DNA of 64,000 nucleotides, taken from assembly GCA_021513715.1 (NCBI GenBank), contig CP084167.1, positions 658,117-722,116 of the forward strand, in the 5' to 3' direction. The stretch comes from Candidatus Heimdallarchaeum endolithica (GTDB lineage Archaea > Asgardarchaeota > Heimdallarchaeia > Heimdallarchaeales > Heimdallarchaeaceae). Below the pieces are notes generated by a model. The model ran no database searches and was not told where the DNA came from. It saw only the letters and a list, made by a program, of their open reading frames with translations. Position numbers and translations under genes: made by a program. Every line of letters starts with the position of its first letter. Positions within the stretch are counted from its first letter, which is position 1. Below, in pieces: positions 1 to 23,335 of this stretch.

Positions 1-1539
1 AGTTGTTTCATTCCAATAATTACCATATATTCCATTATCAAAATAACTATTAGAAGAATAAAATGTGAATTTAGTATTATAAAAATTGTTTAGAAGAAAA
101 GTCGCGTTAGGATAATTTACTACTATATTAGAGTTAATAAAATTACAACCAAGTATAAGTGCATGTTCAAGAGAAGATGGAAAGTTCAAATTGTCATCTG
201 AAAAAGAAGAATTCGAGATTCTTAATTGTTTTAGTTTTGAAAAACCATAACCAAAAGGTACTCCCCTAAAAGTATACCCATTCTTCATAAAAGAACAATT
301 TTCTATAAATAAATTATTCCCCCATGCTATAATTCCCCAACTGTTTCCACTTATTATAGACGAAGTTATTTTCAATTTCGATGTTTCAGAAACAGAAACT
401 CCAACATCGCCATCTTTGATAATACTGTCAGTCAAAGTAATATTATTACTTTGATATACAGAGATCGGGCATGTAAAATCTTTAAGTATTACATTTTCGC
501 TATTAATTAGTACTAATTCTCCTTCAATAGTTGTTGATTCTATAAGAACATCTTTTTGTGATAAAACAAATCTTATATCTTTTCCATTTACTTTATTGTT
601 AATGGAATTAAAGTTAGTAAAATCTCCACCAAAGACTCGAATGGTCTCATTAAACAGTTCATTTTCGTGCAGATATAAATTCGAACCCCCATAAATCTCA
701 AAACCACAAGAGTTTCTATATAATTTATTTCCAAAAATACTAATATTATTTCCATCCCAAATTTCAATACTCCACCTACCATCATAGATATAATTGTAAG
801 ACACTTGTGAATCTTGAAGATTACCAAAGAGAGAAATTGCATCACCAAAATTGTTAAAAGTATTAGAAGATATAACACAATTTGTTCCACTTCCTAGTTT
901 AAGTCCAGAATATGAATAACTATAAGCTGTAAAAACATTATTTGTTATAAATAATCTATCAACACTGCAATCTACACGAATAGCAGCATAATATTCGTTA
1001 TTATTACCATCACTAATGAAACTATTATTTGTAATAGTAATTCCACTTAATACTTCACTTGAATAAAGACGAATTGCTATGAAATAATTAGTAAAAGTAG
1101 TATTTCTTATTAAAGCTGAATCTGTTTGGATTACTAGTCCATGCGTAAGCTTAGTGAAGTCAGATGTTCTATAGCCCAAATCACTTAAGTAACTATTTTC
1201 GATTCTAATTTCTGAGCCTTTTTCAGCGATAATAACATATTTAAGTGTTGGATCAATTGATTTGATTGTGGAATTATTAATATACAAATGACCACCTGAT
1301 TCAACGTGAATACTATATTGTCCATTATCTGTCAAGTTAAAAGAAAGAATAGAATTGTAAATATAACATTCTTCTCCATCTTGAATAACAATATCATTAT
1401 CAAGAAGTATAGACGTATTAACATAGTCAGTTAATTGATAGGAAGGAAATGTATCATCATTAATGAATCCTAAAACATCTTGATTTGAGGAAATCCTTTT
1501 ATTTGGATTACTTGTTCTGATAATTAATACAACCAACAT
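1..1539 (-). CDS. Secreted right-handed beta-helix repeat protein (NosD/CASH-like), 3' end beyond window start
   Basis: Open minus-strand frame reads from ATG at 1539 through position 1 with no stop; N-terminal hydrophobic segment (MLVVLIIRTS); repeated N-x-F/I-x-x-N-x-x-G-I motifs typical of parallel beta-helix repeats. Not in ORF track because it has no stop inside the window. Alternative TTG start at 1584. Confidence 0.6.
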   Translation of the reverse strand, partial: MLVVLIIRTSNPNKRISSNQDVLGFINDDTFPSYQLTDYVNTSILLDNDIVIQDGEECYIYNSILSFNLTDNGQYSIHVESGGHLYINNSTIKSIDPTLKYVIIAEKGSEIRIENSYLSDLGYRTSDFTKLTHGLVIQTDSALIRNTTFTNYFIAIRLYSSEVLSGITITNNSFISDGNNNEYYAAIRVDCSVDRLFITNNVFTAYSYSYSGLKLGSGTNCVISSNTFNNFGDAISLFGNLQDSQVSYNYIYDGRWSIEIWDGNNISIFGNKLYRNSCGFEIYGGSNLYLHENELFNETIRVFGGDFTNFNSINNKVNGKDIRFVLSQKDVLIESTTIEGELVLINSENVILKDFTCPISVYQSNNITLTDSIIKDGDVGVSVSETSKLKITSSIISGNSWGIIAWGNNLFIENCSFMKNGYTFRGVPFGYGFSKLKQLRISNSSFSDDNLNFPSSLEHALILGCNFINSNIVVNYPNATFLLNNFYNTKFTFYSSNSYFDNGIYGNYWNETT

Positions 1540-1960
1540 TAGAAGTAATATTGATCTAACAAGATTCTTATTAAATCTAATCAAATAAACACCAAATTTT
1601 TAACTAATTTTTTTCTTTAAAAAGATTATCTAAGTATCACTAGCAATCATAAAAACATGACTTTTATAAAACTTATTTTTATAAGTAATAATGTTTTGCT
1701 AATTATATACAGATTTAGTTTTGAAATTTATTTGTTTGACAATGATATAGTAATTCAGCAAAAGTAACTTTCACCGCTATATAATAAACTTAATTCCCGA
1801 TATTTTATTGGTGCTAAAGACTATAGTTACCAAATAAAGAAAAACATATGTTTTTACTTTTGTTCAACAAATAATTTTATATTGGGTTATAACCCATAAT
1901 CCTCTAGAAGTCTAAAACGAGAAAAAAGAGGCGATAAAAATAGGATATGGTTCAGGAAGA

Positions 1961-2362
1961 ATGCGTGGTGGAGGGAGAGGAAGGGGAGGAGGATTTGGAT
2001 TAGGAGCAGGAGGAGCCTGTATTTGTCCAGTGTGTGGTACAAAAGCTGCTCATGCAAGAGGGGTACCTTGTTTTCAATCTCGATGCCCACAATGTGGAGC
2101 ACCAATGACTAGAGCAGAAGCTTATGCCGGTCCCCAACCACAGTATAGTAAAAACGTACAAGAAGAGAAAGAATACAAATTTACTACAGCAGCAAAACCA
2201 CATATAGATCAATCTAGATGTAAGGGGTGTGCTTTATGCATAAATAGTTGTCCTTTTAATGTTATTAGAATGGAAAATGGTCATGCAATTATTGATTCTT
2301 CACGCTGCAGAAGTTGCGGAGTATGTATTTCTTCTTGTCCTGAAGGAGCAATAGTTTATTAG
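1961..2362 (+). CDS. Ferredoxin, 2x[4Fe-4S], with Gly/Arg-rich N-terminus and Cys4 zinc-ribbon-like motif
   Basis: C-terminal CKGCALCINSCP and CRSCGVCISSCP motifs; N-terminal GGGRGRGGGFG followed by CxCPVC...CPQC. Confidence 0.75.
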   Translation: MRGGGRGRGGGFGLGAGGACICPVCGTKAAHARGVPCFQSRCPQCGAPMTRAEAYAGPQPQYSKNVQEEKEYKFTTAAKPHIDQSRCKGCALCINSCPFNVIRMENGHAIIDSSRCRSCGVCISSCPEGAIVY

Positions 2363-2404
2363 AAAATGTAGAAAAAAATTAAAAATAGTTGAAAAAAATT
2401 CTTT

Positions 2405-2782
2405 TTATATTTTTAGTGGTTCAATGATTATACTATCTTTATCAAAAGTTGCCAAGTAAAAGTCTTCTGTTAAAATGAGACAACCAGTTGGACAAATATC
2501 TTGACATAATGCACAGAAGCAGCACTTTCCTAAATCTATTTGTGGATAAGTTTTTGGGTATTTTTCTTTATATTCTTTTTTTACTTCTACCATCTTTATT
2601 GCTTTATTTAAGCATATTTTGGCACATGATCCACAAGAGATGCAGTTATCGATGTCAAACTTATGTTTTGCTCTCTCTCTTTCTGGTATCTCTACTTTCT
2701 CCATTGGAAAAAGAACAGTCATTGGTCTTTTGAACAGATTCTTGAATATTTCTGAAATAACACTTAGTTTCATTGTTATCAC
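2405..2782 (-). CDS. NuoI-like 2x[4Fe-4S] subunit of a complex-I-like module
   Basis: Two Cys clusters CISCGSCAKIC and CCFCALCQDICP; last gene of the B-C-D-I operon, 2 nt after NuoD-like gene. Confidence 0.75.
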   Translation of the reverse strand: MITMKLSVISEIFKNLFKRPMTVLFPMEKVEIPERERAKHKFDIDNCISCGSCAKICLNKAIKMVEVKKEYKEKYPKTYPQIDLGKCCFCALCQDICPTGCLILTEDFYLATFDKDSIIIEPLKI

Positions 2783-2783
2783 C

Positions 2784-3896
2784 TCATCTATCTACATCAG
2801 CAGGACATTGGTTTAAACTCCAATAAATAGCAGGGACGTCAGCATAATAAGAATCAGTAAGTAAATGCTTTAAAATAGGTATCATATGAGTAAAAGAAGG
2901 ACCTCTGATCTTAACTCTATAAGGAGTCTTTTTTCCTGTAGCAATCATATAAATAGCGCCTTCTCCTCTTGATAGTTCATTACGTGTATAGGTTTCTCCT
3001 TTAGCTTTGCGGAAGTGAACAATAGGTTTCATATTAGGCGTTTTTACTTCCCCTTTTGGCATTCTGTCAATTGCTTGCTTAACTATCTTCTTGCTTTCTT
3101 CTATTTCTTGCATAGCTATCAAATATCTTGAATAAGCATCTCCTTCATCAAGAACTGGAATTTCAAACTCCAATTCATCATAAATTTCATAAGGATCATC
3201 TCTTCTAACATCTGAAGCAACCCCGCTAGCCCTTAAAATAGGTCCTGTTGCACCTAGTTTAATAGCTTCTTCTTTCGTTAACACTCCTACTTCTTTGAAT
3301 CTTTCCAACCATGCAGGATTTTCTTTTTTTGCGAATTTATGCATATAGTCAATCTTTTCAAATAAAGTAAGAATCTTTTTTTCTGCTTTCTCTGGTAAAT
3401 CTTTTCTTACTCCTCCAGGGCAGATATATCCAGCTGGATAAAGTCTTCCTCCAGTAATATAATCGAACACATCTAGCATATAGTCTCTGTATCCCATTGC
3501 AACATTAAATCCAGTAGTAAATCCTGTTCCCATTGACATCACAGCGTACCATATAAAGTGCGATTGTATTCTTGACAGTTCTGCAAGTATAACTCTGATG
3601 TATTTAGCTCTTTCTGGGATATCATAACCCATTAAAGTATCAACAGCTTCTGCATGGAGAAGATTCCACTGAAGAGGTTCTAAAACACATATTCTATCTG
3701 ATAATACGGAGTTTTGCATAGGTTCTCTATATTCCATTAACTTTTCAAAACCTCTATGTAAATATCCTGGATCTACTACAGCTTTCATCACTCTTTCTCC
3801 ACGAAGTTGAACTCTCACTGAAAAGTTTCCTGAACCAGGGTGAGCTGGTCCAAAGTACATTTCAAAATCTCCTTGTTTTTCTTCTATTTCAGTCAT
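2784..3896 (-). CDS. NuoD-like 49-kDa subunit (complex I / group 4 hydrogenase large-subunit fold, no NiFe-ligand Cys pairs)
   Basis: N-terminal FGPAHPGSGNF and C-terminal ...CPADVDR resemble NuoD; the N- and C-terminal CxxC pairs of [NiFe] hydrogenase large subunits are absent. Confidence 0.8.
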   Translation of the reverse strand: MTEIEEKQGDFEMYFGPAHPGSGNFSVRVQLRGERVMKAVVDPGYLHRGFEKLMEYREPMQNSVLSDRICVLEPLQWNLLHAEAVDTLMGYDIPERAKYIRVILAELSRIQSHFIWYAVMSMGTGFTTGFNVAMGYRDYMLDVFDYITGGRLYPAGYICPGGVRKDLPEKAEKKILTLFEKIDYMHKFAKKENPAWLERFKEVGVLTKEEAIKLGATGPILRASGVASDVRRDDPYEIYDELEFEIPVLDEGDAYSRYLIAMQEIEESKKIVKQAIDRMPKGEVKTPNMKPIVHFRKAKGETYTRNELSRGEGAIYMIATGKKTPYRVKIRGPSFTHMIPILKHLLTDSYYADVPAIYWSLNQCPADVDR

Positions 3897-4438
3897 TTTT
3901 TCACCTCAAAATAATTATCTTCTCTGGGATTACTTTCATTATAATATTCTTGTTGTACATATTTTCGCCAGTCGAAGTCCTTTCTAAACGGAGGAGGGCC
4001 ATCCCAGTCTTCCAACATTAGTGGAGTAAGATTAATGTTTCCTTTAAAAATCACGCCATAAAACTCATGGCATTCTCTTTCACATAATTCTGCATTTTTA
4101 CTCCATAGAGAAGTAACAGAAGATATTGTAGGATTTTCTCTATTTATCCTTGCTTTTATCGTTAAAAGCATTTTTTCTTTATAGGACCATAAATGGTAAG
4201 CAATTTCAAAATTATTCTTTTCAATCCAATCTGTAACACTTATTGTAGAAAGATGTTCAAAACCCATATCATAAGCAATCGAACAAGCATCTACTATTTC
4301 TTTAGGTTCAATAGATACCCAAAGTCTTTTTTTTCTTTGGATATTAACCTTCTTGTTTAATTTCTTACTTAAAGCCGTTACAATTTTTTCTTCTTTATAA
4401 TTATTCTTCTCTTTCTCTACTACACTCATTTTACTCAC
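3893..4438 (-). CDS. NuoC-like 30-kDa subunit
   Basis: ERECHEFYGVIFKGN signature; 4-bp overlap with NuoD-like and NuoB-like genes. Confidence 0.75.
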   Translation of the reverse strand: MSKMSVVEKEKNNYKEEKIVTALSKKLNKKVNIQRKKRLWVSIEPKEIVDACSIAYDMGFEHLSTISVTDWIEKNNFEIAYHLWSYKEKMLLTIKARINRENPTISSVTSLWSKNAELCERECHEFYGVIFKGNINLTPLMLEDWDGPPPFRKDFDWRKYVQQEYYNESNPREDNYFEVKK

Positions 4439-4875
4439 TCATCCGGCATTCCATGAACATGTTGAACTATTTTGAAAACAGCATCAAAAACAGCTTCAGG
4501 TCTGGGAGGACAACCAGGAATATACATGGTTACAGGAAGATAATCTTCAAGCTTCTTAACAGTGTTATATGAATCCCAATACATCCCACCTGTTATTGGA
4601 CATGAACCCAATGCTAAGACAAACTTTGGATCAGGCATTTGCTCATAAATCTTTTGTGCTCTCTTCATTGATTTTGGTGTCTGAAAACCAGCAATAAACA
4701 ACACATCAGCCTTTCTTGGTGAATTAACTGTTATCATTCCAAAACGTTCCATATCCCACCTTGAACCTACAACTGGGACAAGTTCAGTAAATCCACAAGA
4801 GTTAAACCAATTAAAAACCCAAATAGCTTTTACAAAATATTTCATCACAGTTTTCTTCTTAACCATCCTTTCCAC
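4435..4875 (-). CDS. NuoB-like 20-kDa subunit (hydrogenase small-subunit fold)
   Basis: GSCPITGG and GCPPRPE motifs; first motif is SC rather than the usual CC. Confidence 0.8.
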   Translation of the reverse strand: MERMVKKKTVMKYFVKAIWVFNWFNSCGFTELVPVVGSRWDMERFGMITVNSPRKADVLFIAGFQTPKSMKRAQKIYEQMPDPKFVLALGSCPITGGMYWDSYNTVKKLEDYLPVTMYIPGCPPRPEAVFDAVFKIVQHVHGMPDE

Positions 4876-5274
4876 TTTCTTCTCTTTTGTTTAGAAACAC
4901 AATACACAAATTCTTGCTATAATTATTTAAAAAAAAATCTACTTACATATATCTTTTAGGGTAAGGATTTAATCGTTTTGCTATACTTACAAGCCCAAAA
5001 ATGATAAAATAGGTCAATGACTTTTCGGATAACCGAACATTAATCAGTATAAACACCTGTCTAATCGTGTGAATAATTACGCACATGTTCAAAATGGTGA
5101 ATAACTGCGAATTAATTAACAATATATGTGTTTAAGAAAAAGCACATCTGCATTTAAGAATAGAAATTAATCAAACTATTAAATCTAAGAATTTGAGGAA
5201 ATAGATAAAAAAGTAAAAAAAAAGGAAAATAAAGAGACATCTACATTTATAACTTATAATACTCAAATAAATAA

Positions 5275-5400
5275 AAAAATTGTTATAAATGTGAAGGAAA
5301 ATTTGGTTAAGGTGTTCAGGAAAATAAACATTTGTAACGTGGTTCCCGTATGGGTAAGTTAATAACGTACAATCTGTTCTCCAATAAGCAAATAAATTTT
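5275..5400 (-). pseudogene. C-terminal fragment of an alpha/beta-hydrolase paralog
   Basis: Minus-strand translation ENLFAYWRTDCTLLTYPYGNHVTNVYFPEHLNQIFL aligns with the C-terminus of the esterase at 12161-13915 (ETYLNYGRKDCALLTFPYGSHAADIYFPGHFNQIFL); no upstream body or start. Confidence 0.5.
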
Positions 5401-5459: not shown

Positions 5460-6020
5460 CTATTTTGATAATAGCTCAATAAAATTAGAAACAAATTTTT
5501 CGACTTTTTCCCAATCTCGTAAATCGATTACTTTATTCTTTGTATCATCATATTGTTTGGAAATAATTTCGACCATCTTTTTATCTAACCAGGTCATTTT
5601 GCTTTCAGGAGACAAATCAAGTTTTCCTCCAAATGCTTCAACTAAATTAAAGTTTAATCCGTATTTTTGTAGTCTAGAGAATATATATTCATTCTTTATG
5701 CTCTCATATTTCTCAGGATCTGCTGCAAAGGCAGAAGAAACAAAAAAAGCTTTAATTCCAATGTATTTTTTTAATGCTTCCTTTTCGTTTTTTACGAATT
5801 TTTTCACACTTTTTACCCACATAGACATCTTAATTCCAGTTCCAATAATAAGACCAGAATAATTGTTTATTTTTGGAAGTTCTTGTTTTTGAATTTGACC
5901 TAAGTCAATAATTTCAACATAAAAGTTATTTTTTTCCAATAATTCTTTAATTCTTTTAGTTACCTCTTCTTTGGCACCGTATCTAGAGCCAAAGACAATT
6001 AAAATTTTTTTATCATTCAT
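5460..6020 (-). CDS. Flavodoxin-like protein
   Basis: N-terminal KILIVFGSRYGAKEE flavodoxin-type FMN-binding loop; about 186 aa. Confidence 0.6.
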   Translation of the reverse strand: MNDKKILIVFGSRYGAKEEVTKRIKELLEKNNFYVEIIDLGQIQKQELPKINNYSGLIIGTGIKMSMWVKSVKKFVKNEKEALKKYIGIKAFFVSSAFAADPEKYESIKNEYIFSRLQKYGLNFNLVEAFGGKLDLSPESKMTWLDKKMVEIISKQYDDTKNKVIDLRDWEKVEKFVSNFIELLSK

Positions 6021-6097
6021 AAAAAAAGCAATGCTTGGTTATATTAAAATCTAGTGAAATATAATAATTGAAGAAAATTGTAAAAAAAAGAAAAAAA

Positions 6098-7777
6098 TTA
6101 TAATCTAATTCCGAATGTGGATAATTTCACACTAAACAAGAAAACAAAGAATACAATTGACCACACAGATCCTATAATACTGAGAATCAAAGCTTTTTTG
6201 TTTATTCCATTTTTCATTTCTGTTTTTTGAGCTTCTTTTGAAATAAAGTAAGAAATAAGAGAAAATGGAAAGATAAATAAACCTATTTTCGAAAGTTTAA
6301 GTGCAAAACTCGATTCAGTATGTTTTTCTCTATTGTTTCTATTAAGATCTACCCAGTCGACATTGTAAAAGTTCCCTTGAACATTCAATATATCTTTCTT
6401 CCACCACCTTTTTTCTGTTTCTTGTTTAGGTTCCTTTATGAAAAGATTGCGTAGAAAAACAATTATCCACTTCATGCTACCAAAATAGCCTATTTTCTCC
6501 CAGAAATAAGTCAAAACGTGGTAAAAAGCAAGCGACAATATTATCACAATAATTGTTCCACTCCAAGGAAGTCTTACATATGTGTCAGTCATTACTAAGC
6601 TAACAATAAAGTAGAACAAATTGTAGAAGTATTGCATGTTGTAAATAGTAAAAGGAATAAAACCTAATCGTCTAATGAATTTAGTGTGGTTAGCAAAAAT
6701 AGCACCTTTTCCTCTGAATTCAACTATTCGAAACATTACAGAGATTAAACAAAAGGAAAAACCATTTAAACTCAAAAATTGGAAAAGCCATCCAACTACT
6801 GGAACACCATTCTCTGTTGTCCAATATCTATGTTCACTTATATGTAAATACAAGTTTAGCCCTGCATCCATTCCTTGATTATTGATAACTAAGAATACGT
6901 TTAGAAAGACACCTATTATTCCAATAACAAACATTGCAATACTTATGAAAAAGAACTTTTTTAGAAAAGAAAGTTTAATTTTCTCTTCTTTTTGAGAGAT
7001 ATAAATTCCAAAAATACTCCCAGCGAAACTTGCAGTTAAATAAGGAAAGACTGGTTCCCACATTGCAGCTAATGGACCAAGGAAAAAGCGTAAAACAAAC
7101 TGTCCGAAGGAAGTTATACCAATTACACCAAATTCTACATTTTTTCCTGTAGCAGGATCAATAGCATAGGGATAACCAGGAACTAATTTATCTGATATAA
7201 ACCACATTAGAGGAGTAAAAGCAAGAGCTAACACAGCAAATAAGCTATAGAAAATAATTAAAGTAGAAGGCTTTCTCCATTTTTCGTTTCGTATAAGAAG
7301 CGCATGAACGATACCATTTATAATAATGCACCACGCAATTGTATGAACAGTCTCAAAAAATAAGAAACGCCATAAGGCTTGATCATATGTTCCTGCTTTT
7401 AAGTTGTTTAAATGAAGAAAAACTTCACCAATTGTTCCGTGATAACCTAAAATAGATTCAGATAACATCGCAAAAAAGAGAAGAAAAGAACCAGTAATTA
7501 CTTGACGAAGCATAATCTGTTTCCAATTATCCCCTCTTGCTAATTGTCTTTGCATAGAAATCATATTTCCTATAGCTGAAATAATTAGAAAAAGACCTGC
7601 AAGTCCGCCTAGAAAAGGAAGAACAACCAGTAATAAAACTTGAAATAAAGGTAATTGATCTAATTTAGCAACTAAGGAATCAATATCAAGGGTATCACTT
7701 ATTATATGAAGCACAATCATAAGAAAGATAGATATTCCTCTCAAGAAATCAATAGTAAAAAATCGTTTTTTAATCAT
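6098..7777 (-). CDS. Polytopic membrane protein, acyltransferase-3/DUF1624-like
   Basis: RFFTIDFLRGISIFLMIVLHI N-terminal motif; many predicted TM helices. Start taken at internal ATG 7777 rather than the track start 7894, which lies beyond a 14-nt homopolymer. Confidence 0.45.
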   Translation of the reverse strand: MIKKRFFTIDFLRGISIFLMIVLHIISDTLDIDSLVAKLDQLPLFQVLLLVVLPFLGGLAGLFLIISAIGNMISMQRQLARGDNWKQIMLRQVITGSFLLFFAMLSESILGYHGTIGEVFLHLNNLKAGTYDQALWRFLFFETVHTIAWCIIINGIVHALLIRNEKWRKPSTLIIFYSLFAVLALAFTPLMWFISDKLVPGYPYAIDPATGKNVEFGVIGITSFGQFVLRFFLGPLAAMWEPVFPYLTASFAGSIFGIYISQKEEKIKLSFLKKFFFISIAMFVIGIIGVFLNVFLVINNQGMDAGLNLYLHISEHRYWTTENGVPVVGWLFQFLSLNGFSFCLISVMFRIVEFRGKGAIFANHTKFIRRLGFIPFTIYNMQYFYNLFYFIVSLVMTDTYVRLPWSGTIIVIILSLAFYHVLTYFWEKIGYFGSMKWIIVFLRNLFIKEPKQETEKRWWKKDILNVQGNFYNVDWVDLNRNNREKHTESSFALKLSKIGLFIFPFSLISYFISKEAQKTEMKNGINKKALILSIIGSVWSIVFFVFLFSVKLSTFGIRL

Positions 7778-8203
7778 TAAACAAAAAAAAAAAAAATCTT
7801 TGTTAAAAGTTTTTCCTAATGCTGAAAAAGCGTTTAACTGCAATAAAAAAGTAAAAATTTGTTGGAAATTTAGGTTGTGAATAAATAGTATCATAGAAAT
7901 GAAAAATCAGATTAAAACCATCACTCCCAAGAAAAGATTAAATTTTGGAGTTAGAATCAAAAAGTCATTATAACAAGAAAAAGGATTTTTTGGGATTTAC
8001 TAATTATTATCATCAACTTTGTTTTTGTAAGATTATACTCTTTCTACTGTTATTTTAAAAGCTTATCCAATAAAGTGTAAAAACAGTTCTTGTTAGTGAA
8101 TTTGTTAATAAGAAACAAATAAATGCTCTTTTTTTTCATTAATCACTAATATTCAATTTTAAAATGTTGAAAAATGGAAAAAAAAGGTAAGAATCAGCTT
8201 TTA

Positions 8204-10579
8204 TTATTCTATTTCTTCTTTTGTAACTTTGGGCATTTTCTTTGGCCACCAGTTCCATTTCTGAGCTAATGACATTATTGCTGGAACCAATATTGTTCTA
8301 ATAAAGAAAGTGTCAACTAATACTGAAATACACAAGATAAAACCTATTTGATTCAATATCATCTCTGAGCTAATTAACAACCCTGAGAAGGCTATTGCCA
8401 TTATTATTCCTGCAGCTGTAATTATTGTTCCTGTTTTTTCTACTCCTTTTATTATTGCTGATCTATCAGAATAACCTTTTTTCCTATATTCGCTTATCCT
8501 ACTTAGAAGGAATATATCATAATCAAGTCCTAAACCCAGAACTATTGAAAAGCTAATTATAGGAACAATCCAGTAAAGAGAGTTCACCCCATTTAATACA
8601 TTTGGGAATAACCAGTCTAACACATTTTGCTCAAAAACAAGAACTGCTAAACCAAAAATCCAACTTAAGGTTAAGCCTATTGTTATTAGCAATCTCAAGG
8701 GAATAAAGAGTGAACGAAACATAATTACTATTAGAACGTATACAATCAAAACTACTGTTAAGATCATATAAGGAAAAAGGCTTATTGTTGTTTCTAGGGA
8801 ATCAATCCAAAATATTGCTCCTCCGGCAAGAAAGATCTTATATCCAAACTCTTCTTCAAAATCCTCCATTAATTCTCTTGTGTGTTTCACCCAATCCAGA
8901 GCTTCTTTTCCTTGAGGGTCAAAAGGAGTAATGATTTCAAAGAGTGCAGAAGAATTGTCTGATGTAGCATAATTAATCCACATTTGTTTATAAAGAACAG
9001 AATCACCATCTGATACTGATGGATTCAAAAGCATAGAGGCATAAAACCAAGGAATTGCTTGACCATTCAACCAAGATATACCAGTAATAGATTCATTCGT
9101 CAACATCGTTTCTTGAGATAGATTTGCAATGATCTTCTGACTATTAGTAAAAAAATCTGGTGTTCTTACTCCATTAGTTTCATTAGTTTGAAAAATTAAA
9201 TAATAGGGAAGTAACTGACCAGCTTTAAAATCGTCCTCTAAAAGAGCATAAGCATCCCATGTTTGAGTATTTCTAGGTAAAAGATGTTTGTTCTCCAAAC
9301 TAAGATCCATTTTCATTACATTTATAGATATTGGAATAGCAATAACTAAAACTAGTAAAATTATTGCAATTGCATATTTTTGAGAAAACTTTGTAATAGT
9401 GACCCAATTTATTTTCTTTTTTATTTTTTTGATATTTTGTTTAATTCTCTTATTTTTTCCATTATTCTGCATTTTCTCGATTTTCTTTTCTATTTTCTTG
9501 ATATATTTTTCATTATAGAAGAATTTACCAAAAGTAAGCAATGCTGCAGGAGTAAAAGTCAGATTTGTAAACAAAGTAACAACCACAGTAACGCCAGCTG
9601 ATAATCCCAAAGAAGCAATAGCATTAACAGGAAAGAACATCAATCCTAGAAAACATACTGCAAGAGTTAAACCAGAAACAAGTATTGTATGACCGGAATG
9701 CTCATTCATTAATGAAACAGCAGTATAATTATCTTTACCCTTTTCTACTTCTTCTCTATATCTCGTAAGTAAAAACAAACTATAGTCAATAGATATTGCT
9801 ATGACTAAAGACATCACAATACTCGGAGCAAAGGAAAGAATAGTATATATGTATGTAAATCCGTAAAGAATAAGAAAAGTTGTAAAAATACTAATTGCAA
9901 TGCTAACTAAAGGAAGAATCATAAGTTTAAGTCTTCTAATAACCAACGCTAAAACAATTAGAGCTATAGGTAAAATAAATGAATCCATTCGTTTTAAATT
10001 ATCTATAATTGCAATACTAAAATCTCTGTCCATTACAGCTAATCCTGTAAGAAATATTGTGTATTCTTCATGATTCAAATTTATTTCAGAAACAGTCTCT
10101 TCTACATAATCAATAAGATCAGCTTCCACTTTCTTATCTTCTACTTCATAAATAACAATAATCAATGTTGAAGTTAAATTCTCTGAAACAAATGATTGTG
10201 CTATATCAGATTGATTAATAGCTTGTAGACCATAATAACTGTAAACACCCTTAATTATTTGACTATCCTCAAATTTATCCAATTTATCCATTAGAGCAAA
10301 AGTATAATTTTGAACCTCTGTATTGAGAATAGACCTATTACTCTCTGATTTAATAATAATAATCAAACTTGTACTATTCGCTCTTTCAGGGAATTCTTGC
10401 TCTAAAAACTGTTGAGCCTTATATCCATCAGTATATAGCGGAGGTTCAACCACATTTTCTGTCCTATCAAAAAAATTAAACCCAAATGTTATCCCCAAAA
10501 CAAGTATAATTATCCAAAATACTAGTATTGGTATTTTAAATTTCTTTATGTATTTGTTATATATATCAACAATCCCCAT
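8204..10579 (-). CDS. MMPL-family (RND superfamily) membrane transporter
   Basis: Two repeated halves each with a TM bundle and a large loop domain; motifs LLTRYREEV and LSRISEYRKKG. Start taken at ATG 10579 (MGIVDIYNKY) rather than track start 10675. Confidence 0.7.
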   Translation of the reverse strand: MGIVDIYNKYIKKFKIPILVFWIIILVLGITFGFNFFDRTENVVEPPLYTDGYKAQQFLEQEFPERANSTSLIIIIKSESNRSILNTEVQNYTFALMDKLDKFEDSQIIKGVYSYYGLQAINQSDIAQSFVSENLTSTLIIVIYEVEDKKVEADLIDYVEETVSEINLNHEEYTIFLTGLAVMDRDFSIAIIDNLKRMDSFILPIALIVLALVIRRLKLMILPLVSIAISIFTTFLILYGFTYIYTILSFAPSIVMSLVIAISIDYSLFLLTRYREEVEKGKDNYTAVSLMNEHSGHTILVSGLTLAVCFLGLMFFPVNAIASLGLSAGVTVVVTLFTNLTFTPAALLTFGKFFYNEKYIKKIEKKIEKMQNNGKNKRIKQNIKKIKKKINWVTITKFSQKYAIAIILLVLVIAIPISINVMKMDLSLENKHLLPRNTQTWDAYALLEDDFKAGQLLPYYLIFQTNETNGVRTPDFFTNSQKIIANLSQETMLTNESITGISWLNGQAIPWFYASMLLNPSVSDGDSVLYKQMWINYATSDNSSALFEIITPFDPQGKEALDWVKHTRELMEDFEEEFGYKIFLAGGAIFWIDSLETTISLFPYMILTVVLIVYVLIVIMFRSLFIPLRLLITIGLTLSWIFGLAVLVFEQNVLDWLFPNVLNGVNSLYWIVPIISFSIVLGLGLDYDIFLLSRISEYRKKGYSDRSAIIKGVEKTGTIITAAGIIMAIAFSGLLISSEMILNQIGFILCISVLVDTFFIRTILVPAIMSLAQKWNWWPKKMPKVTKEEIE

Positions 10580-10649
10580 TTCAACCACCCAAAATATGTT
10601 TATTGTATTGGCAATTTTTATTGTCGGCACTCTAAACATAACAACACCC

Positions 10650-10657
10650 TTATATAA
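10650..10657 (+). promoter_or_regulatory. Candidate archaeal TATA box for the TetR-like gene
   Basis: TTATATAA about 30 nt upstream of the ATG at 10687, inside the 107-bp divergent intergenic region. Confidence 0.3.
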
Positions 10658-10686
10658 ACATAACCTTAAAACCATTCAGAAGAGAA

Positions 10687-17432: not shown

Positions 17433-18587
17433 GTGAAAAAGGTGTCAACCAAAAGTAATGAAAATCAAGTTGTATCCACTCAAACCAGTGAGAATACAAA
17501 CATTTTGCGTTTACCAGCAGAAAAGAAGTACGAAAAAGAGTTAGAGTTTCTTCATTCTATTGATAAAGGCAAGAAGCCAACAAATTGGTACCTTTCTCCT
17601 CAGATGTTACGAACTTTTATTTTGGGTTCAAATGAACACAATATGAAAATAGAAAAAAAGTTTTACGGCGATCAGAGTTTAGTAGAAAGAGCAATAGTTA
17701 CATTAGCGAGTGATAGGGGATTATTACTTATAGGTGATCCTGGTACAGGAAAATCTTGGTTAGCAGAACTTCTTGCAGCAGGAATAAGTAGAAATTCTAC
17801 TCTTGTTGTACAAGGGACTGCTGCTACTACAGAAGACCAAATAAAATACTCATGGAATATCGCTTCAGTAATAGCTTCTGGCCAATCTCTTGAAACTCTT
17901 ATTCCATCTCCAATAATGCAAGCTATGGAAAAAGGATGTATTGGACGTTTTGAGGAACTTACTCGTTGTACTTCAGATGTACAGGATTCTCTTATTTCTA
18001 TTCTTTCAGAAAAATATATTTCTATTCCTGAACTTTCTGAGCAAATTGTCCATGCAAAAGAAGGGTTCAATGTTATTGCAACTGCTAACAGTAGAGATAA
18101 AGGAGTAAATGATCTTTCCTCTGCATTAAAACGGAGATTCAATTTTGTAACAATACCGATAGTAACGGATACAAAAACTGAGAAAAACATAATCAACTTC
18201 CGAATCAAGGATCTAATGGAAAAGAAAGGTCTAAGTACATCAGTTCCACAACCACTAATTGATATTTTATTAGAAACTTTCAACGCTCTTCGAGATACAA
18301 ATAAATCAAAAAAGAATGAAAATGAAAGACTTGAATCTTCTCTCTCAACAGCAGAACAAATAGGTATCTTAGAAGATGCGCTCTTACAATCGATATTTTT
18401 CACGGAGTACACTCAAGAGCAAGCACTAGCTCGTTCAATAATTGGAGGTTTAACTAGACGTTTGCCTGAAGATCTTACGCTCATGAACAAGTTTTGGCAT
18501 TCTGTTGTCAAAGAAAAAAGTCAAAAGTCTGAAAACTGGAAAAAGTATTTCTCTGAAGGAAAGAAAACAATAAAGACTTTTACATGA
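17433..18587 (+). CDS. MoxR/AAA_5-like AAA+ ATPase (operon gene 1)
   Basis: Walker A GDPGTGKS, Walker B-like IGRFEEL, sensor ATANS, RRF arginine; GTG start. Confidence 0.7.
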   Translation: MKKVSTKSNENQVVSTQTSENTNILRLPAEKKYEKELEFLHSIDKGKKPTNWYLSPQMLRTFILGSNEHNMKIEKKFYGDQSLVERAIVTLASDRGLLLIGDPGTGKSWLAELLAAGISRNSTLVVQGTAATTEDQIKYSWNIASVIASGQSLETLIPSPIMQAMEKGCIGRFEELTRCTSDVQDSLISILSEKYISIPELSEQIVHAKEGFNVIATANSRDKGVNDLSSALKRRFNFVTIPIVTDTKTEKNIINFRIKDLMEKKGLSTSVPQPLIDILLETFNALRDTNKSKKNENERLESSLSTAEQIGILEDALLQSIFFTEYTQEQALARSIIGGLTRRLPEDLTLMNKFWHSVVKEKSQKSENWKKYFSEGKKTIKTFT

Positions 18588-18603
18588 ACAGAGGTAGGTA
18601 TTA

Positions 18604-21537
18604 ATGGCAACAAGTGGCTCCTCTTCAATTTCGGAACAACTTGATACAAATAAAAGTCTCTTAAAGCAACTGATAGAGGTGTCAAAGGAAATTGAGAAAG
18701 AAAAACAATCAAATTCTGTTGAAATTTTTTTAAAGACAATAATCAAAGATATCAAAAGAGTAGAAAATGAAACATTAGAGATTATTCCTGTTTCACATTA
18801 CTCTCTTTCTTCTGCTGTTCATGTATGGCAGAGATTATCAGAAAAAAAACCTAAGGTTATATTTCTTGAAGCACCAGAGGATTTTGAGAGAGAATTGGAA
18901 AATATAAAATATTGCACCCCTCCTGTAGCTTTTCAAGGAATATTAGTCAAAACAGAAGAAATTGACCATGTGTTCTTGCCTATTAACTCTTATACAATCG
19001 TTTCAGAAGCTTCTGCAGAATATCAAGCAATAAAATATGCTTTTGAAAACCCAGGAACAGAGCTAATTTTTGTTGATGCTCCTTGTACTAATCGTGTAAA
19101 ATGGGAGCAAAAATATCTTGCAACTAAAAAATATAAAGCAAAAAAAGAAGAGATTAATGCTAATAACTACAATTTCATTATTGGAAACACGATTCCAACA
19201 AAAAAGGAATTTCTAATCACACTTCTTGAAAAAACAAATTTCGATGATTATAGTCTTTGGTGGGAACAAGTAGCTGAAAATGCACTTTTAGATCTCTCTT
19301 ATGATAATTATAGATATGTAATGGTTTTATTAGGGAGTGTTTTTCGTCGCTCTGGTTCTGATGATAAATTAGAAATAATTAGTTCTCTAAGAGATAAATT
19401 CATGTGGAATAAAATTAAAAGTGTGATAAATTCAAAAAAACTTCAACCAGAAGACTGTGTTTTTATTTGTGGAGCAGCACATGCAATTGCAACAGTTGAA
19501 GAATGGGGAATGAAAGGAATAAAGAAAAAAAATAGACGCAGTAGAAAATCAGAATGGAAATACGGAATAAATCAAGTCGACTACAATTTAATAGATCAAA
19601 TTGCTAATAAAACTCCTGGTTCCACTTCTGAAATACATGCGAAGTGGGATGCAATAAAGAGATCTGTTTACAAAAATAAAAAAGAAGAAATAACTTTAGA
19701 ACTAGACAAGTATAATCAAGCTGTTCATGATAAAATACTCACTTGGGCTTCTGAAACAGTGAAAAAAGCGAGAAAAGCAGGTTATATTACTAGCCCTGCA
19801 GACAGTATTGCAATTGTAGAGCTTACATACGCTCTTAAAGAAATTAGAAATAGAGCACGAATCACACCACGAGAATTTATTGATGCGGCAGTTACAAGTA
19901 TTCAAAAAAACGATTTATATCTTCAACCAGTAGAGGAACTAATTGATGAATACATATTTCCTAATGTTTTAGGAAAAGTAGGGTATAAAGCCTTGCCAAG
20001 CTTGGCAAAAGATGTTTTTGATCGACTTTCTATCTTAAAAATTTCAAGAGATTCAAACAGAGTTCAAAGAGTGCTATTAGATTTAGATAAACAACCAGAA
20101 CTCAAACCTGTTTCTGATTTACTCTGGATGTTAAAACACATGAATATTAATGTTGTTCCAATTGCTGGAAAAAAAACCCTTGGAAAACATATTAAACAAG
20201 AATCATGGGATTTATACATCTACAAAAACAAAAACCCTCTGATTTGGCTTTCATTAGAAGGAATATCAGTAGAAGAAGTTTTTCGTTCCCGAATAACGAA
20301 AAAAGTGAAAAAAGATCCTTCAATTTTATCTATTTTAGAAGCTATAAAATCGGTACTTACTTATTTGAATTATAAGGATATATTATTATTCACTCTCTCT
20401 AATTTACTATTTTCTAATCTTGAAGGTATAATATTTGAAGATCAAAAAAAACTATATTCTTTAACTTTAGAGCTTTTAAACTACTTAAGAACTCTCAAAG
20501 AAGGTATCCCAAAATGGTTTATCTATTACATTGTTAGTTCTTACAGACAATATTGTCAAGAGCTAGTTAAAGCAGCAGCAGATAACTCAATCTCTGCAGA
20601 ACAGTTTTCCATGATTTTCTCTTTCATTTTCAAAATCGAAGGAATAGCCCTAACAGAAGGAGCAAGTAGAGAAGAATTAGAAATAGCAATCAAACTAACT
20701 CTTGACTTGGATGAAATTCCTGAAAATAAGAAAATTATAGCTTTAGCTGCTAATAGTTTGCTTAAGCAAGAAAATGAAAAAGAACTAAGACAAATTATAT
20801 CAAAGGTCTTCTGGAATCCACAAATTATTCAATCAGCTTCAGAAATTGTTTTAGCTTTAGTATATTCTTCAAATTTTGCTCCCAACCTAATATTTCTTTT
20901 TATAGAATTCTTAGACCAATGTTTTCGAAGATTGAGCGATAATCTTATCTCTCAGTGGTTACCACTATTGACTTCACAAATGAAAAAGTTAGATCAAAAC
21001 TATGTTATACAAATCGCTCAAATAGTCAAGAGGTATTATAATCGAGATCTCAAACAAATTGAAGTAATGAATGTTTGGTACGATGAAAGTTTATATGCCA
21101 CGATAACAGACAGAAGAGAAAGAGAAACAGAGATAGCAATTGAAACTGAAAATATTATTATATCTACTAACTTTATTCATAATTTTATTTATGCTTTTCC
21201 AGAAACACTTAACCAACTTTGCTTACTATTAGGTTTTGAACAAATAAAACAATTTCCACTATTTAGTCAATCAACTACTTCAATTAGTTCAATTGAAAAA
21301 ACAGTAGAAAAAGAGATTCCACTTATTACAAGAATTCTAATTAAGAATCCTGCAACAATAATCAATATTAAAAAAATTTTTGAGATAAAAAAAGAGTTCA
21401 CTATCACTAAACAAGATTTGGAAAAATCTAATAAAATTGACAAAGAAAAAGAAGATCTAAAGACATGTGACTCTCCATTTTCTATTTTAAAATCTCATTC
21501 TCAAACCCTTGAGAAAACTAGTGAATTATTAAGGTGA
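18604..21537 (+). CDS. Large uncharacterised protein, possibly DUF5682-like (operon gene 2)
   Basis: 977 aa; N-terminal IPVSHYS...VIFLEAPED...PPVAF resembles, from memory, the N-terminal motif of DUF5682-type proteins; otherwise alpha-helical with no catalytic motif recognised. Confidence 0.5.
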   Translation: MATSGSSSISEQLDTNKSLLKQLIEVSKEIEKEKQSNSVEIFLKTIIKDIKRVENETLEIIPVSHYSLSSAVHVWQRLSEKKPKVIFLEAPEDFERELENIKYCTPPVAFQGILVKTEEIDHVFLPINSYTIVSEASAEYQAIKYAFENPGTELIFVDAPCTNRVKWEQKYLATKKYKAKKEEINANNYNFIIGNTIPTKKEFLITLLEKTNFDDYSLWWEQVAENALLDLSYDNYRYVMVLLGSVFRRSGSDDKLEIISSLRDKFMWNKIKSVINSKKLQPEDCVFICGAAHAIATVEEWGMKGIKKKNRRSRKSEWKYGINQVDYNLIDQIANKTPGSTSEIHAKWDAIKRSVYKNKKEEITLELDKYNQAVHDKILTWASETVKKARKAGYITSPADSIAIVELTYALKEIRNRARITPREFIDAAVTSIQKNDLYLQPVEELIDEYIFPNVLGKVGYKALPSLAKDVFDRLSILKISRDSNRVQRVLLDLDKQPELKPVSDLLWMLKHMNINVVPIAGKKTLGKHIKQESWDLYIYKNKNPLIWLSLEGISVEEVFRSRITKKVKKDPSILSILEAIKSVLTYLNYKDILLFTLSNLLFSNLEGIIFEDQKKLYSLTLELLNYLRTLKEGIPKWFIYYIVSSYRQYCQELVKAAADNSISAEQFSMIFSFIFKIEGIALTEGASREELEIAIKLTLDLDEIPENKKIIALAANSLLKQENEKELRQIISKVFWNPQIIQSASEIVLALVYSSNFAPNLIFLFIEFLDQCFRRLSDNLISQWLPLLTSQMKKLDQNYVIQIAQIVKRYYNRDLKQIEVMNVWYDESLYATITDRRERETEIAIETENIIISTNFIHNFIYAFPETLNQLCLLLGFEQIKQFPLFSQSTTSISSIEKTVEKEIPLITRILIKNPATIINIKKIFEIKKEFTITKQDLEKSNKIDKEKEDLKTCDSPFSILKSHSQTLEKTSELLR

Positions 21538-21544
21538 AAAAATA

Positions 21545-22024
21545 ATGGGTAATAAAATAATAGAAGAAAAAGAAGAAAAAAACAATTTTTATCTTTCTAT
21601 TATCCCTAGAAATACACCTCCTAGAAGAAATTATAAAATCAAAAAAGTCCCTTTTATGGAGTTTAGAGATAACAAAATTCAAGGAGTAGTTTCTAGCGGA
21701 AGTAGTTTTGAACGAGTATATGTTTGTGTTATAAATCTAGAAGACAAAACATTTACATGCCACACAAACAACAATCGTCCTTGTGGAGGACTAAGAGAAA
21801 GAATGTGTAGTCACATCAAAGCTCTACTTGATGTAGCACTACGCAATCAGGAAACTGAATTACTGTTTATGCAATACGATTTTGACTTTTTTGACCCTGA
21901 TGGAAGTAGACGCTATTCTGATGTTTTTACTCGCTTTCAAGAACAATTACATTTTCTAGAAATTAAAATGGATGAGAAAGAAAATTTTCCTGAAATGAAT
22001 TGGTTTGTAGGTGATTTATCATGA
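21545..22024 (+). CDS. SWIM-like zinc-finger protein (operon gene 3)
   Basis: FTCHTNNNRPCGGLRERMCSHIKALL fits the SWIM pattern with the usual second Cys replaced by His. Confidence 0.5.
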   Translation: MGNKIIEEKEEKNNFYLSIIPRNTPPRRNYKIKKVPFMEFRDNKIQGVVSSGSSFERVYVCVINLEDKTFTCHTNNNRPCGGLRERMCSHIKALLDVALRNQETELLFMQYDFDFFDPDGSRRYSDVFTRFQEQLHFLEIKMDEKENFPEMNWFVGDLS

Positions 22025-23331
22025 ACCAAATAATTATTGAAGAAAAGACTCTTGATGAAATAAGAAAAGTTCAATCTGTTTTGCAAGAACTTAGCGAGAT
22101 CTTCATGATAGGGCTAGGTAAACTTACCAAGAAAGAAAAAGAAATTTTCGATAAAGTTAATGAAGGTTTTTCGCATACTCCTCTCTCTGAAGTTCTTGCA
22201 AATAGTTTTTCCAAACTCAAAAACTCTGATTTTTCTGAAGATGTTATTACTCCCCTTGTTTATGCTATCTTATCTCTTCAAGGAGCAATATATGATGCTT
22301 TATTCACTACTGTAGGTGAAGAAAGAACATTTACAGAAATAGGTAAAGTAGAATATTACGATTTTTCACAAGAAAAAGCTGTTCTTATGGAAAATATAAG
22401 AAAATGGTTAATTAGCTTACTCATTAGCGGATTTAAAGATTTACAACTAGATAATATAGATTCGTTTTCCTCTGTGCTTGAAACAATTTCCTCATATCCT
22501 GAATTAACCCGATTAAATGTCTTGTTGCGAGGATTAATCTGCGATTTTAAATTTACACAGAATAAAAAAGAACTAAAAAAATATGCTATTCGATTTCTGG
22601 ATCTTTGGACAAAAAGTTATTTTCTCACTTTAATGGAAATAAAAACTAAAAATAAACGAATTGAAAATGCTAAATTCTATCCCATAGCCTATCAACACTT
22701 CATCCACGAACAATTCTTTGTAGGAATAATTAGAGGAATTGTACAAACAAAGGATAACAGTCTATTTGTTAATTTAGAATTTCCTAGTTTTGTATCACCT
22801 CTTATTCCATCAAAAGAGTTTTACAGCTTAATCTATAAAAACAATGAAGAACTTTTTACTGCTCTTAAGCAATCCAAGGTTGTGATTATTGAAGAAGCTT
22901 CTCTAAGTCCTCAAGGAGTAATGCACATAGAAAAATTTACAGTTTCTGATAAATCATTCAATATTAAAGAAGTTTATGAGAATACAAATAATTTCAAAGA
23001 TATCTATTTAATAAAAAAACCTTCTTTGGATAGACATCATGTACATTACTTTCTACCATTTTTTATCGAAGAAAAACTGCCAAAATTGAGTACCACAGAG
23101 GACACTAAAATTAAATTTAGAAACAATAAATTCAAAAAAAATTCAAAACATTTTAAAAAACCTAAATTTGTTGAACTTCGTTACGATAACGATTTCTATT
23201 GGAATATAATTCAATTTTATTTACCAAAGTTTCCAGAAGAAATTTTGTATTTTGAAACAAAAAATATCAAAATTAAAACAGAAACTTATGAGCTTATGAA
23301 AGAAAAAAGTAGTAAAATACTTAGGAAGTGA
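22021..23331 (+). CDS. Uncharacterised protein (operon gene 4)
   Basis: 436 aa; 4-bp overlap with the SWIM gene; no motif recognised. Confidence 0.5.
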   Translation: MNQIIIEEKTLDEIRKVQSVLQELSEIFMIGLGKLTKKEKEIFDKVNEGFSHTPLSEVLANSFSKLKNSDFSEDVITPLVYAILSLQGAIYDALFTTVGEERTFTEIGKVEYYDFSQEKAVLMENIRKWLISLLISGFKDLQLDNIDSFSSVLETISSYPELTRLNVLLRGLICDFKFTQNKKELKKYAIRFLDLWTKSYFLTLMEIKTKNKRIENAKFYPIAYQHFIHEQFFVGIIRGIVQTKDNSLFVNLEFPSFVSPLIPSKEFYSLIYKNNEELFTALKQSKVVIIEEASLSPQGVMHIEKFTVSDKSFNIKEVYENTNNFKDIYLIKKPSLDRHHVHYFLPFFIEEKLPKLSTTEDTKIKFRNNKFKKNSKHFKKPKFVELRYDNDFYWNIIQFYLPKFPEEILYFETKNIKIKTETYELMKEKSSKILRK

Positions 23332-23335
23332 ATAA

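Follow-up and report, generated by a model that had tools for sequence, protein, structure and literature searches.

The 64-kb window analysed here, 64,000 nucleotides from the closed 3.33-Mb genome of Candidatus Heimdallarchaeum endolithica, carries on its minus strand at 2405-4875 a four-gene operon, mbsJKLN, whose products very probably make up the cytoplasmic head (MbsJ, MbsK, MbsL and MbsN) of an Mbx/MBS-type enzyme. MBS of Pyrococcus furiosus, the membrane-bound enzyme once called Mbx, is a ferredoxin-dependent sulfane-sulfur (polysulfide) reductase of the complex I / group 4 hydrogenase superfamily (PMC7684303). As judged from the genes around the operon and its relatives, the chances are balanced that the genes of this head have been separated, in the Heimdallarchaeum lineage, from those for the MbsM anchor and the Mrp-type ion-pumping arm, and our leading reading, held at slightly short of even confidence, is that of a soluble ferredoxin-driven sulfane-sulfur reductase; docking of the head onto a distant membrane anchor would be nearly as likely. 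The MBS head itself was already known, and what is new here is an MBS-type head that appears detached from its pump.

The mbsJKLN operon

The first-pass annotation, made from the sequence alone, had described the locus at these coordinates as a stand-alone NuoB-C-D-I module. It consists of four tightly packed open reading frames (ORFs), which in their longest form are joined by two successive 4-bp overlaps and then a 1-bp gap; with the gene starts of the identical public contig (L001) the junctions become +5, -4 and +10 bp, and the ATG at 4866 that is called there is likely the true start of mbsJ. All four products were recognised by Pfam and labelled NuoB, NuoC, NuoD and NuoI by NCBIfam, which bears out the earlier statement that only four peripheral subunits are encoded at the locus, and the arrangement is not attributable to chance. 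MbsL is identical to UJG44089.1 of Ca. H. endolithica and shares 99% identity with UJG41305.1, which is encoded in the closed genome of Ca. H. aukensis PM71 (CP084166.1); the public annotation of each of the two is 'NADH-quinone oxidoreductase subunit D'. The operon and its immediate surroundings comprise the following features.

4435..4875, minus strand: mbsJ, NuoB / hydrogenase small-subunit homologue, 143-146 amino acids (Pfam Oxidored_q6, 6e-23)
3893..4438, minus strand: mbsK, NuoC homologue, 178-181 amino acids (Pfam Complex1_30kDa, 7e-29)
2784..3896, minus strand: mbsL, NuoD / [NiFe] large-subunit homologue, 370 amino acids (Pfam Complex1_49kDa, 3e-71)
2405..2782, minus strand: mbsN, NuoI homologue, 122-125 amino acids (Pfam Fer4_7, 2x[4Fe-4S]; NCBIfam NuoI, 2.6e-29)
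4876..5378, minus strand: upstream non-coding region of the operon, inside the block conserved with H. aukensis
2363..2404, no strand: convergent spacer between mbsN and the ferredoxin gene, 42 bp, T-rich
1961..2362, plus strand: ferredoxin gene, convergent to the operon, 133 amino acids (Pfam Fer4 families)
1855..5378, no strand: conserved block of promoter region, mbsJKLN and ferredoxin (blastn limits against H. aukensis)
5460..6020, minus strand: Flavodoxin_5 (HemG-like) gene, 186 amino acids (Pfam Flavodoxin_5, 1e-17)

An A/T-rich TATA-like element, TTTAAATAATTATA, at ~4918-4932 lies ~45-65 nucleotides 5' of the candidate mbsJ starts at 4875 and 4866 and may serve as the promoter, and the T-rich spacer between the convergent genes is likely a bidirectional oligo-T terminator. 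Rfam gave no RNA element in the 64-kb window.

The four subunits belong to the Mbx/MBS type

Assignment of the four subunits to the MBS type is based on their closest matches of known structure, on phylogeny, on hallmark residues and on the gene order of a complete relative. The best match of MbsL in the PDB was chain L of P. furiosus MBS, 6u8y_L (8.6e-88, 298 bits, against 234 bits for T. thermophilus Nqo4 and 150 bits for MbhL), that of MbsJ was 6u8y_J (1.5e-42, 148 bits, against 131 bits for NdhK and 112 bits for MbhJ) and that of MbsK was 6u8y_K (3.5e-15), whereas for MbsN the NdhI subunit (1.2e-22, 83 bits) came ahead of 6u8y_N (1.2e-20, 77 bits). A phylogeny of the NuoD-like protein had been proposed in the first-pass annotation; in a neighbour-joining tree of the large subunit with 100 bootstraps, the family was monophyletic in 100/100 replicates and joined the P. 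furiosus MbsL group in 77/100, and the MbsL-like sequences stood apart from complex I NuoD in 99/100. In the complete relative L042 the genes are ordered MnhE-MrpF-MnhG-MbhD-MnhB-NuoK-like(4L)-antiporter-x-NuoH-J-K-L-N, which follows the Mbx/MBS arrangement and includes one antiporter-like subunit only. The hallmarks of P. furiosus MBS set out in its structure paper (PMC7684303) are all present, namely two Cys in L, absence of His38/Tyr87, no equivalent of MbhL E21 and a proximal cluster with three Cys.

Inspection of the large subunit revealed that MbsL keeps the first Cys of each [NiFe] pair, C70 (RICVLE) and C364 (QCPADVDR), which align to RICVPE and NCPPDIDR of P. furiosus (MbsL C85 and C385), and that the second position is taken by Glu in one pair (E73) and Asp in the other (D367). 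Both Cys are invariant in the family alignment A1 and were retained in all covering family loci with the exception of one unclassified locus that has Ala at position 70. With only one Cys per pair (no RxCGxC/DPCxxC pairs), a [NiFe] hydrogenase is ruled out, as the first-pass annotation had concluded; its wording that the protein lacks both Cys pairs misses that the first Cys of each is kept, which is the MbsL signature. Throughout the family C-x-x-E and C-x-x-D replace the NiFe CxxC pairs in a (nearly) invariant manner, as they do in P. furiosus MbsL, and a Pyrococcus MbsL C85A/C385A mutant is still active despite this conserved constellation of two Cys, Glu and Asp.

The beta1-beta2 loop of MbsL reads HPGSGNF and aligns to HPSTHGV of Nqo4 and HPALKEP of NiFe subunits. 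Of the quinone-site positions, that of Nqo4 His38 is occupied by Gly23 and that of Nqo4 Tyr87 by Val71, and Asn24 stands at the position of the proton-reducing E21 of MbhL. In MbsJ the proximal [4Fe-4S] cluster has three Cys only, C27, C92 and C122, which align without gaps to C28, C93 and C123 of P. furiosus MbsJ, and the motif NSCGFTE aligns, also without gaps and at the same length, to TGCGGIE of 6u8y_J; it reads NSCGF, not SCCF, and does not contain the tandem CC of NuoB cluster N2. The non-ligating C25 of P. furiosus MbsJ is replaced by Phe throughout the family (F24 in the window), and F24, C27, C92 and C122 are invariant among 60 family members, a pattern from which we infer three-Cys coordination of the proximal cluster. 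MbsN, the presumed ferredoxin-docking subunit, has one complete CxxCxxCxxxC(P) motif each for the medial and the distal [4Fe-4S] cluster, and its eight cluster Cys, as well as C88 (Ser in 1/65), show no or almost no variation. Overall, the diagnostic residues are invariant or nearly so across 60-69 family members. The description of the module as quinone-module-like and of the complex I type therefore gives way to one on the Mbx/MBS branch, with three of the four subunits closest to 6U8Y, Gly and Val in place of His38 and Tyr87, and no tandem CC.

Search for membrane, input and maturation partners

Pfam was run on every window ORF of at least 120 amino acids, and no NuoA/H/J-N, Mrp or NuoE/F/G gene and no Hyp or HycI gene of group 4 hydrogenase maturation was found among them. 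Thus, the earlier statement that membrane-arm and NADH-input genes are missing nearby holds for the whole 64 kb of this closed 3.33-Mb chromosome. The partner-free stretch spans 59 kb on the upstream side of the operon and 2.4 kb on its downstream side, and related loci lengthen the clean downstream flank to 9.6 kb. A PF00146 (NuoH-type) gene was found in family members L042, L049, L050 and L060, and no PF00146 protein lies within 9-10 kb of the operon in L003, L004 and L014-L016. Hdr genes are likewise missing from the 64-kb window and from the flanks of the Heimdall-clade loci. With the NuoH proteins of L006 and L010 as queries, no protein labelled Heimdallarchaeum or Heimdallarchaeaceae was among the best 120 matches, a weak negative since an MbsM of the L042 type is too distant from both queries. 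An outlier among the NuoH matches, P0156, proved to belong to an unrelated D-H-I cluster.

Two neighbours of the operon were considered in this context. A 598-amino-acid multi-pass protein (6098-7894), with ~10 predicted membrane helices and encoded between the MMPL and flavodoxin genes, was rejected as a conserved membrane partner; it has no Pfam or NCBIfam family and is missing from the H. aukensis and L003 loci. The MMPL/RND-type transporter gene (window 8204-10675) adjoins the operon also in H. aukensis (L014; 791 amino acids, two genes 5' of mbsJ with an esterase between) and in the unrelated L023, a phylogenetically distant stand-alone locus where it lies immediately upstream of JKLN (5825-8581), and not in the other loci; this recurrence may be a coincidence.

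In the genome paper, no terminal electron-accepting pathway could be discerned in Heimdallarchaeum, and one 'MBH complex' and two cytosolic sulfhydrogenases were counted per genome (PMC8813620). The supplements of that paper hold no gene-level hydrogenase table, and the published 'MBH operon' may be the present locus or another.

Gene contexts across the family

We compared the surroundings of large-subunit relatives in 80 metagenome and 3 genome loci, using BLAST against subunits from complete operons, and counted contexts in the close family (at least 54% identity) for loci with interpretable context. A NuoH-type and/or antiporter-like gene is nearby in 18 loci and Hdr-type genes in 9 (two of the nine through a weak single HdrA-like match), and in 12-13 loci the four genes stand alone, with at least 5 kb of unrelated genes on both sides (at least 3 kb in one case). 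The head therefore repeatedly has non-membrane neighbours. Among the Asgard archaea, stand-alone JKLN was found in eight loci of at least 7 genomes, including the closed H. aukensis chromosome, and the flanks are unrelated. All six Heimdall-clade loci (the window, H. aukensis, L003, L004, L015 and L016) are of this kind with flanks that all differ, and so are two loci of a sister clade (Hodarchaeales-like). In one stand-alone Asgard locus, L099, genes for an HdrD-like protein (Fer4_8 and CCG) and a 1070-amino-acid FAD_binding_4 protein (226-4689) lie ~2.4 kb 5' of JKLN on the same strand. No account of stand-alone or Hdr-linked MbsJKLN modules was found in the literature, in a search that was incomplete.

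In the Hdr-linked group, HdrA (770-777 amino acids, with an MvhD/FlpD domain), HdrC and HdrB directly follow JKLN in L008, L009, L021, L022 and L080, L009 being a duplicate within this set. This layout suggests that the Hdr-linked relatives could form a soluble MbsJKLN-HdrABC complex analogous to Mvh-Hdr. Giant HdrA-like fusions stand beside the head in some relatives (also L025, L027 and L032 in the Hdr group).

Among the membrane-linked relatives, L042 has genes for a ferredoxin and for FeThRed_B, the catalytic subunit of ferredoxin:thioredoxin reductase, directly 5' of its complete MBS-like operon (3176-3822), a neighbourhood that hints at a link to disulfide or sulfur chemistry. In L054-L058 an MBS-like head with its own H lies beside an MBH-like B-C-D(NiFe)-H-I set, with one antiporter set within the fetched flanks, and L043 and L052 are superclusters of an MBS-like head and an MBH-like NuoB-C-D(NiFe)-H-I set, with one Mrp/antiporter set within the fetched flanks; in all of these loci the two sets may be alternative heads for one pump. 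At L097 (8770-11457, GCA_048938655.1) a NuoD-like protein of 406 amino acids is encoded with NuoH and NuoI, and the contig stretch holds no NuoB, NuoC or antiporter genes.

A probable recently exchanged cassette with its own ferredoxin

Comparison of the window with the H. aukensis locus by blastn showed 95-96% DNA identity over 3.5 kb (window 1855-5378, L014 8518-12032), against ~73-86% outside this block. Synonymous divergence (dS) between the two species is 0.01-0.16 inside the block and 0.41-1.78 in the flanking genes, the MMPL, TetR and esterase genes having values of 0.67-1.78, and the flanks are rearranged between the two species. On the simplest reading, mbsJKLN and the ferredoxin gene look like a five-gene cassette that was recently exchanged between the two species by recombination or transfer. 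The cassette does not contain any membrane gene, and its limitation to these five genes argues for the head and the ferredoxin as a self-sufficient unit.

The N-terminal segment of the ferredoxin is rich in RGG and in Cys and resembles a zinc ribbon, and a 2x[4Fe-4S] domain makes up its C-terminal part; its gene is kept beside the operon in L014 (98% amino acid identity) and L003 (54%). Its context makes it a candidate for the electron donor of the head. The Flavodoxin_5 gene adjoins the module in the window and in L003, and the H. aukensis homologue is ~6 kb away; this loosely associated protein is a possible alternative low-potential donor. The ratio of non-synonymous to synonymous divergence (dN/dS) of MbsJ and MbsL within the stand-alone clade is 0.03-0.11, and the stand-alone module is under purifying selection.

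Possible modes of action: a soluble reductase or a head with a distant anchor

In light of these data, we propose that reduced ferredoxin, plausibly the convergent 2x[4Fe-4S] protein, would dock on MbsN and that MbsJ, at its proximal [4Fe-4S] cluster, would receive the electrons by way of the two clusters of MbsN; the Cys motifs for these clusters are present in the sequence, and the flow is proposed by homology to MBS. As has been put forward for MBS of P. furiosus, the one iron of the MbsJ cluster that has no Cys ligand would then pass electrons straight to the substrate, a sulfane-sulfur compound or a comparable small oxidant. Nickel, quinone or NADH would not be involved, the loss of the Ni-Fe and quinone ligands being seen in the sequence. 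The four-subunit enzyme would be soluble or loosely membrane-associated, and its reaction would be a non-energy-conserving, non-pumping electron sink like that of the active C-MBS subcomplex. Indeed, C-MBS subcomplexes of P. furiosus, purified from the supernatant of a 100,000 x g spin, are able to reduce dimethyltrisulfide (PMC7684303), and this activity of an isolated head is one reason for favouring a soluble enzyme. Further reasons are that the anchor gene is missing from the loci repeatedly and over the long term, that the exchanged cassette consists of JKLN and the ferredoxin only, that the same head recurs with soluble HdrABC and, as a weak argument, that no NuoH labelled Heimdallarchaeaceae was among the best 120 matches.

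A number of findings weigh against a soluble enzyme. In MBS the anchor M, together with L and J, forms the substrate chamber (PMC7684303), and the sulfane-sulfur substrate is presumed from a hyperthermophile enzyme of ~50% identity. When column conservation was compared with that of membrane-linked members, no relaxed selection was found in stand-alone members: the columns conserved to at least 90% number 84 in the stand-alone/Hdr-linked group against 84 in the membrane-linked group for MbsJ (of 146) and 188 against 187 for MbsL (of 370), and almost no position conserved in the membrane group is altered in the stand-alone group. In MBS and complex I it is through the beta1-beta2 loop that head and membrane arm are coupled, and the HPGSGNF loop is invariant in all sequences covering it, in every context, although drift might be expected at such an interface after a long loss of the anchor. 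Stand-alone, Hdr-linked and membrane-linked loci are intermixed in the tree, and in L006, of the sister clade, a NuoH-type gene lies directly upstream of J in the order H-J-K-L-N. Finally, the one 'MBH complex' per genome could provide an anchor or arm in trans (PMC8813620).

The strongest competing explanation is a split operon, in which a membrane-bound, ion-translocating MBS-like complex has its MbsM/NuoH and Mrp arm encoded far away, or in which the head shares the anchor or arm of MBH as an alternative head; we regard this as a serious, if minority, possibility. The equal constraint on stand-alone and membrane-linked members and the invariant coupling loop speak for it, as do the gene order of L006 and the single MBH complex of each Heimdallarchaeum genome (PMC8813620). 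The intermixed contexts would mean either that context switches easily or that partners are often encoded elsewhere, and the two head sets of L054-L058 with one antiporter set within the fetched flanks suggest that sharing of an arm is conceivable. However, in membrane-linked loci with both flanks visible the NuoH-type gene stands beside JKLN (in L043, L046 and L052 it comes after an intervening [NiFe] D gene), whereas the eight Asgard loci have no NuoH-type gene in their available flanks (1.4-10 kb), the L006 and L010 queries returned no Heimdallarchaeaceae-labelled NuoH among their best 120 matches, and the exchanged cassette is free of membrane genes. The NuoH of L006 (7825-8958) makes this locus the only Asgard relative with an anchor gene adjoining JKLN; its closest matches, at ~54% identity, are H subunits encoded in complex-I-like [NiFe] hydrogenase operons of Hodarchaeales (e.g. 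L013), and with the family's MbsM-type anchors it shares only ~30% identity, which hints at a borrowed subunit and a secondary re-anchoring in L006 and not at the ancestral state.

It is unlikely, on the present data, that the head brings electrons into, or takes them out of, a soluble multi-enzyme complex encoded elsewhere, such as an HdrABC-type flavin-based bifurcating system. Such a role would accord with the nine family loci that have Hdr-type genes beside JKLN (two of them weak), with HdrA-HdrC-HdrB directly after it in five, and with the HdrD-like CCG and large FAD_binding_4 proteins encoded upstream in L099, and hydrogenase-type large and small subunits joined to HdrABC are the established Mvh-Hdr architecture (PMC6085437). 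Neither the 64-kb window nor the Heimdall-clade flanks contain Hdr genes, however, and the ferredoxin is the only conserved neighbour. A Q-module of a genuine 11-subunit complex I of the Nuo or Fpo type with a split operon is for practical purposes ruled out by residues, phylogeny and model scores (Gly/Val at His38/Tyr87 and SC instead of the tandem CC of NuoB; exclusion of NuoD in 99/100 replicates; 295 bits with the FpoD model against a cut-off of 600) and by the lack of a terminal electron-accepting pathway in the genome paper (PMC8813620), in spite of the public name NuoD, a score of 378.6 bits with the NCBIfam NuoD model PRK06075 (cut-off 360) and a VKOR gene (29894-30340) that hints at some quinone in the cell.

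Comparison with known systems

The operon has the same four head subunits in the same J-K-L-N order as P. furiosus MBS (PDB 6U8Y) and its C-MBS subcomplex, and the two have in common the two L Cys with Glu and Asp, the lack of the quinone His/Tyr and of the proton-reducing Glu, the three-Cys proximal cluster in a shortened motif and the two clusters in N; the isolated Pyrococcus head is catalytically competent in vitro. The Heimdallarchaeum locus differs in that it is without mbsM, which lies directly 5' of J in M-J-K-L-N, and without all nine membrane genes. Protein identity is ~50%, the Pyrococcus C25 is Phe throughout the family, and J and N do not have the Pyrococcus C-terminal extensions (143 against 192 and 122 against 208 amino acids, respectively). 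Complete relatives such as L042 have one antiporter-like subunit and not two, and the host is a low-G+C Asgard archaeon (the window has a G+C content of ~30%) and not a hyperthermophilic member of the Thermococcales.

The subunits of the head are homologous to those of the Q-module of complex I and NDH-1 (NuoB, C, D and I), and three [4Fe-4S] clusters form the same chain in both; like cyanobacterial NDH-1 the head has no NuoEFG and would probably receive its electrons from ferredoxin at NuoI. Unlike complex I, it lacks the quinone His/Tyr and the tandem Cys of NuoB, has no NuoA/H/J-N nearby and branches outside NuoD. The MvhAGD-HdrABC complex of methanogens also has a hydrogenase-type large and small subunit pair as a soluble module attached to HdrABC, a layout that the Hdr-linked relatives mimic; in Mvh, however, the NiFe site is functional and MvhD is a subunit of its own, and the window has no Hdr genes.

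A study of Asgard complex-I-like enzymes described NuoBCDI heads of Heimdallarchaeia as active [NiFe] hydrogenases with shortened membrane arms (bioRxiv 10.1101/2024.07.04.601786), and the Heimdallarchaeum module differs from these. Asgard [NiFe] complexes, represented here by L010 and L013, belong to the same superfamily and also have a NuoBCDI-type head without NuoEFG, and both kinds can share genomes or gene clusters (L043, L052 and L054-L058). The large subunits of L010 and L013, however, keep both pairs (RxCGxC and DPCxxC) and are encoded with H, J, K and L/M/N genes, and L013 has a HycI protease gene 3.4 kb upstream, whereas in the Heimdallarchaeum module two of the Ni-Fe ligands are gone and neither membrane nor maturation genes lie close by. 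The Ehr complexes, attributed to Marreiros et al. in 2013, are reportedly superfamily members without the NiFe Cys and quinone residues and are said to be defined as membrane complexes with antiporter-like subunits; they are likened to the present module by description only.

In closed Asgard genomes, genes that bear the name 'NADH-quinone oxidoreductase B/C/D/I' encode neither complex I nor a hydrogenase and should be counted as neither in metabolic reconstructions. This re-annotation bears on Ca. Heimdallarchaeum, which has been described without any terminal acceptor pathway and figures in eukaryogenesis scenarios that are built on hydrogen syntrophy. Tentatively, and with rather less than even confidence, the Mbx/MBS head could be viewed as a free-standing, exchangeable cassette of four subunits and a ferredoxin, which would act in Heimdallarchaeum as a soluble, cluster-catalysed reductase of sulfane sulfur or a related substrate and could be plugged into a Mrp pump, HdrABC or nothing. 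If so, fermenters that are supposed to evolve only H2 would have an unrecognised sulfur-dependent electron sink, and the ancestor of the complex I Q-module would be a plug-in unit that archaea combine at will; the occurrence of the head beside a pump, beside HdrABC or alone bears on the modular assembly of complex I. If the head is active alone, it would be a four-gene, mesophile-encoded, cluster-catalysed sulfur reductase, and its expression would be far less demanding than that of the Pyrococcus complex with its 13 subunits.

Other features of the window

Beyond the operon and its neighbours, the window contains the following genes.

17433-24946: gene cluster for a MoxR-like AAA_5 ATPase, DUF5682 (977 amino acids), two family-less proteins and a VWA CoxE-like protein
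29894-30340: vitamin K epoxide reductase (VKOR) family gene
30703-32802: membrane H+-pyrophosphatase gene
34605-35171 and 35258-35827: neighbouring genes for two small GTPases of the Ras/Roc family, as is typical of Asgard archaea
43689-44627, 48491-49435 and 51095-52609: mobile-element genes (rve-type integrase; DDE transposase; TnpB/Cas12f-like protein with a TNB domain)

VKOR is normally quinone-dependent, and the presence of its gene is of note in an organism that has been described without a respiratory chain.

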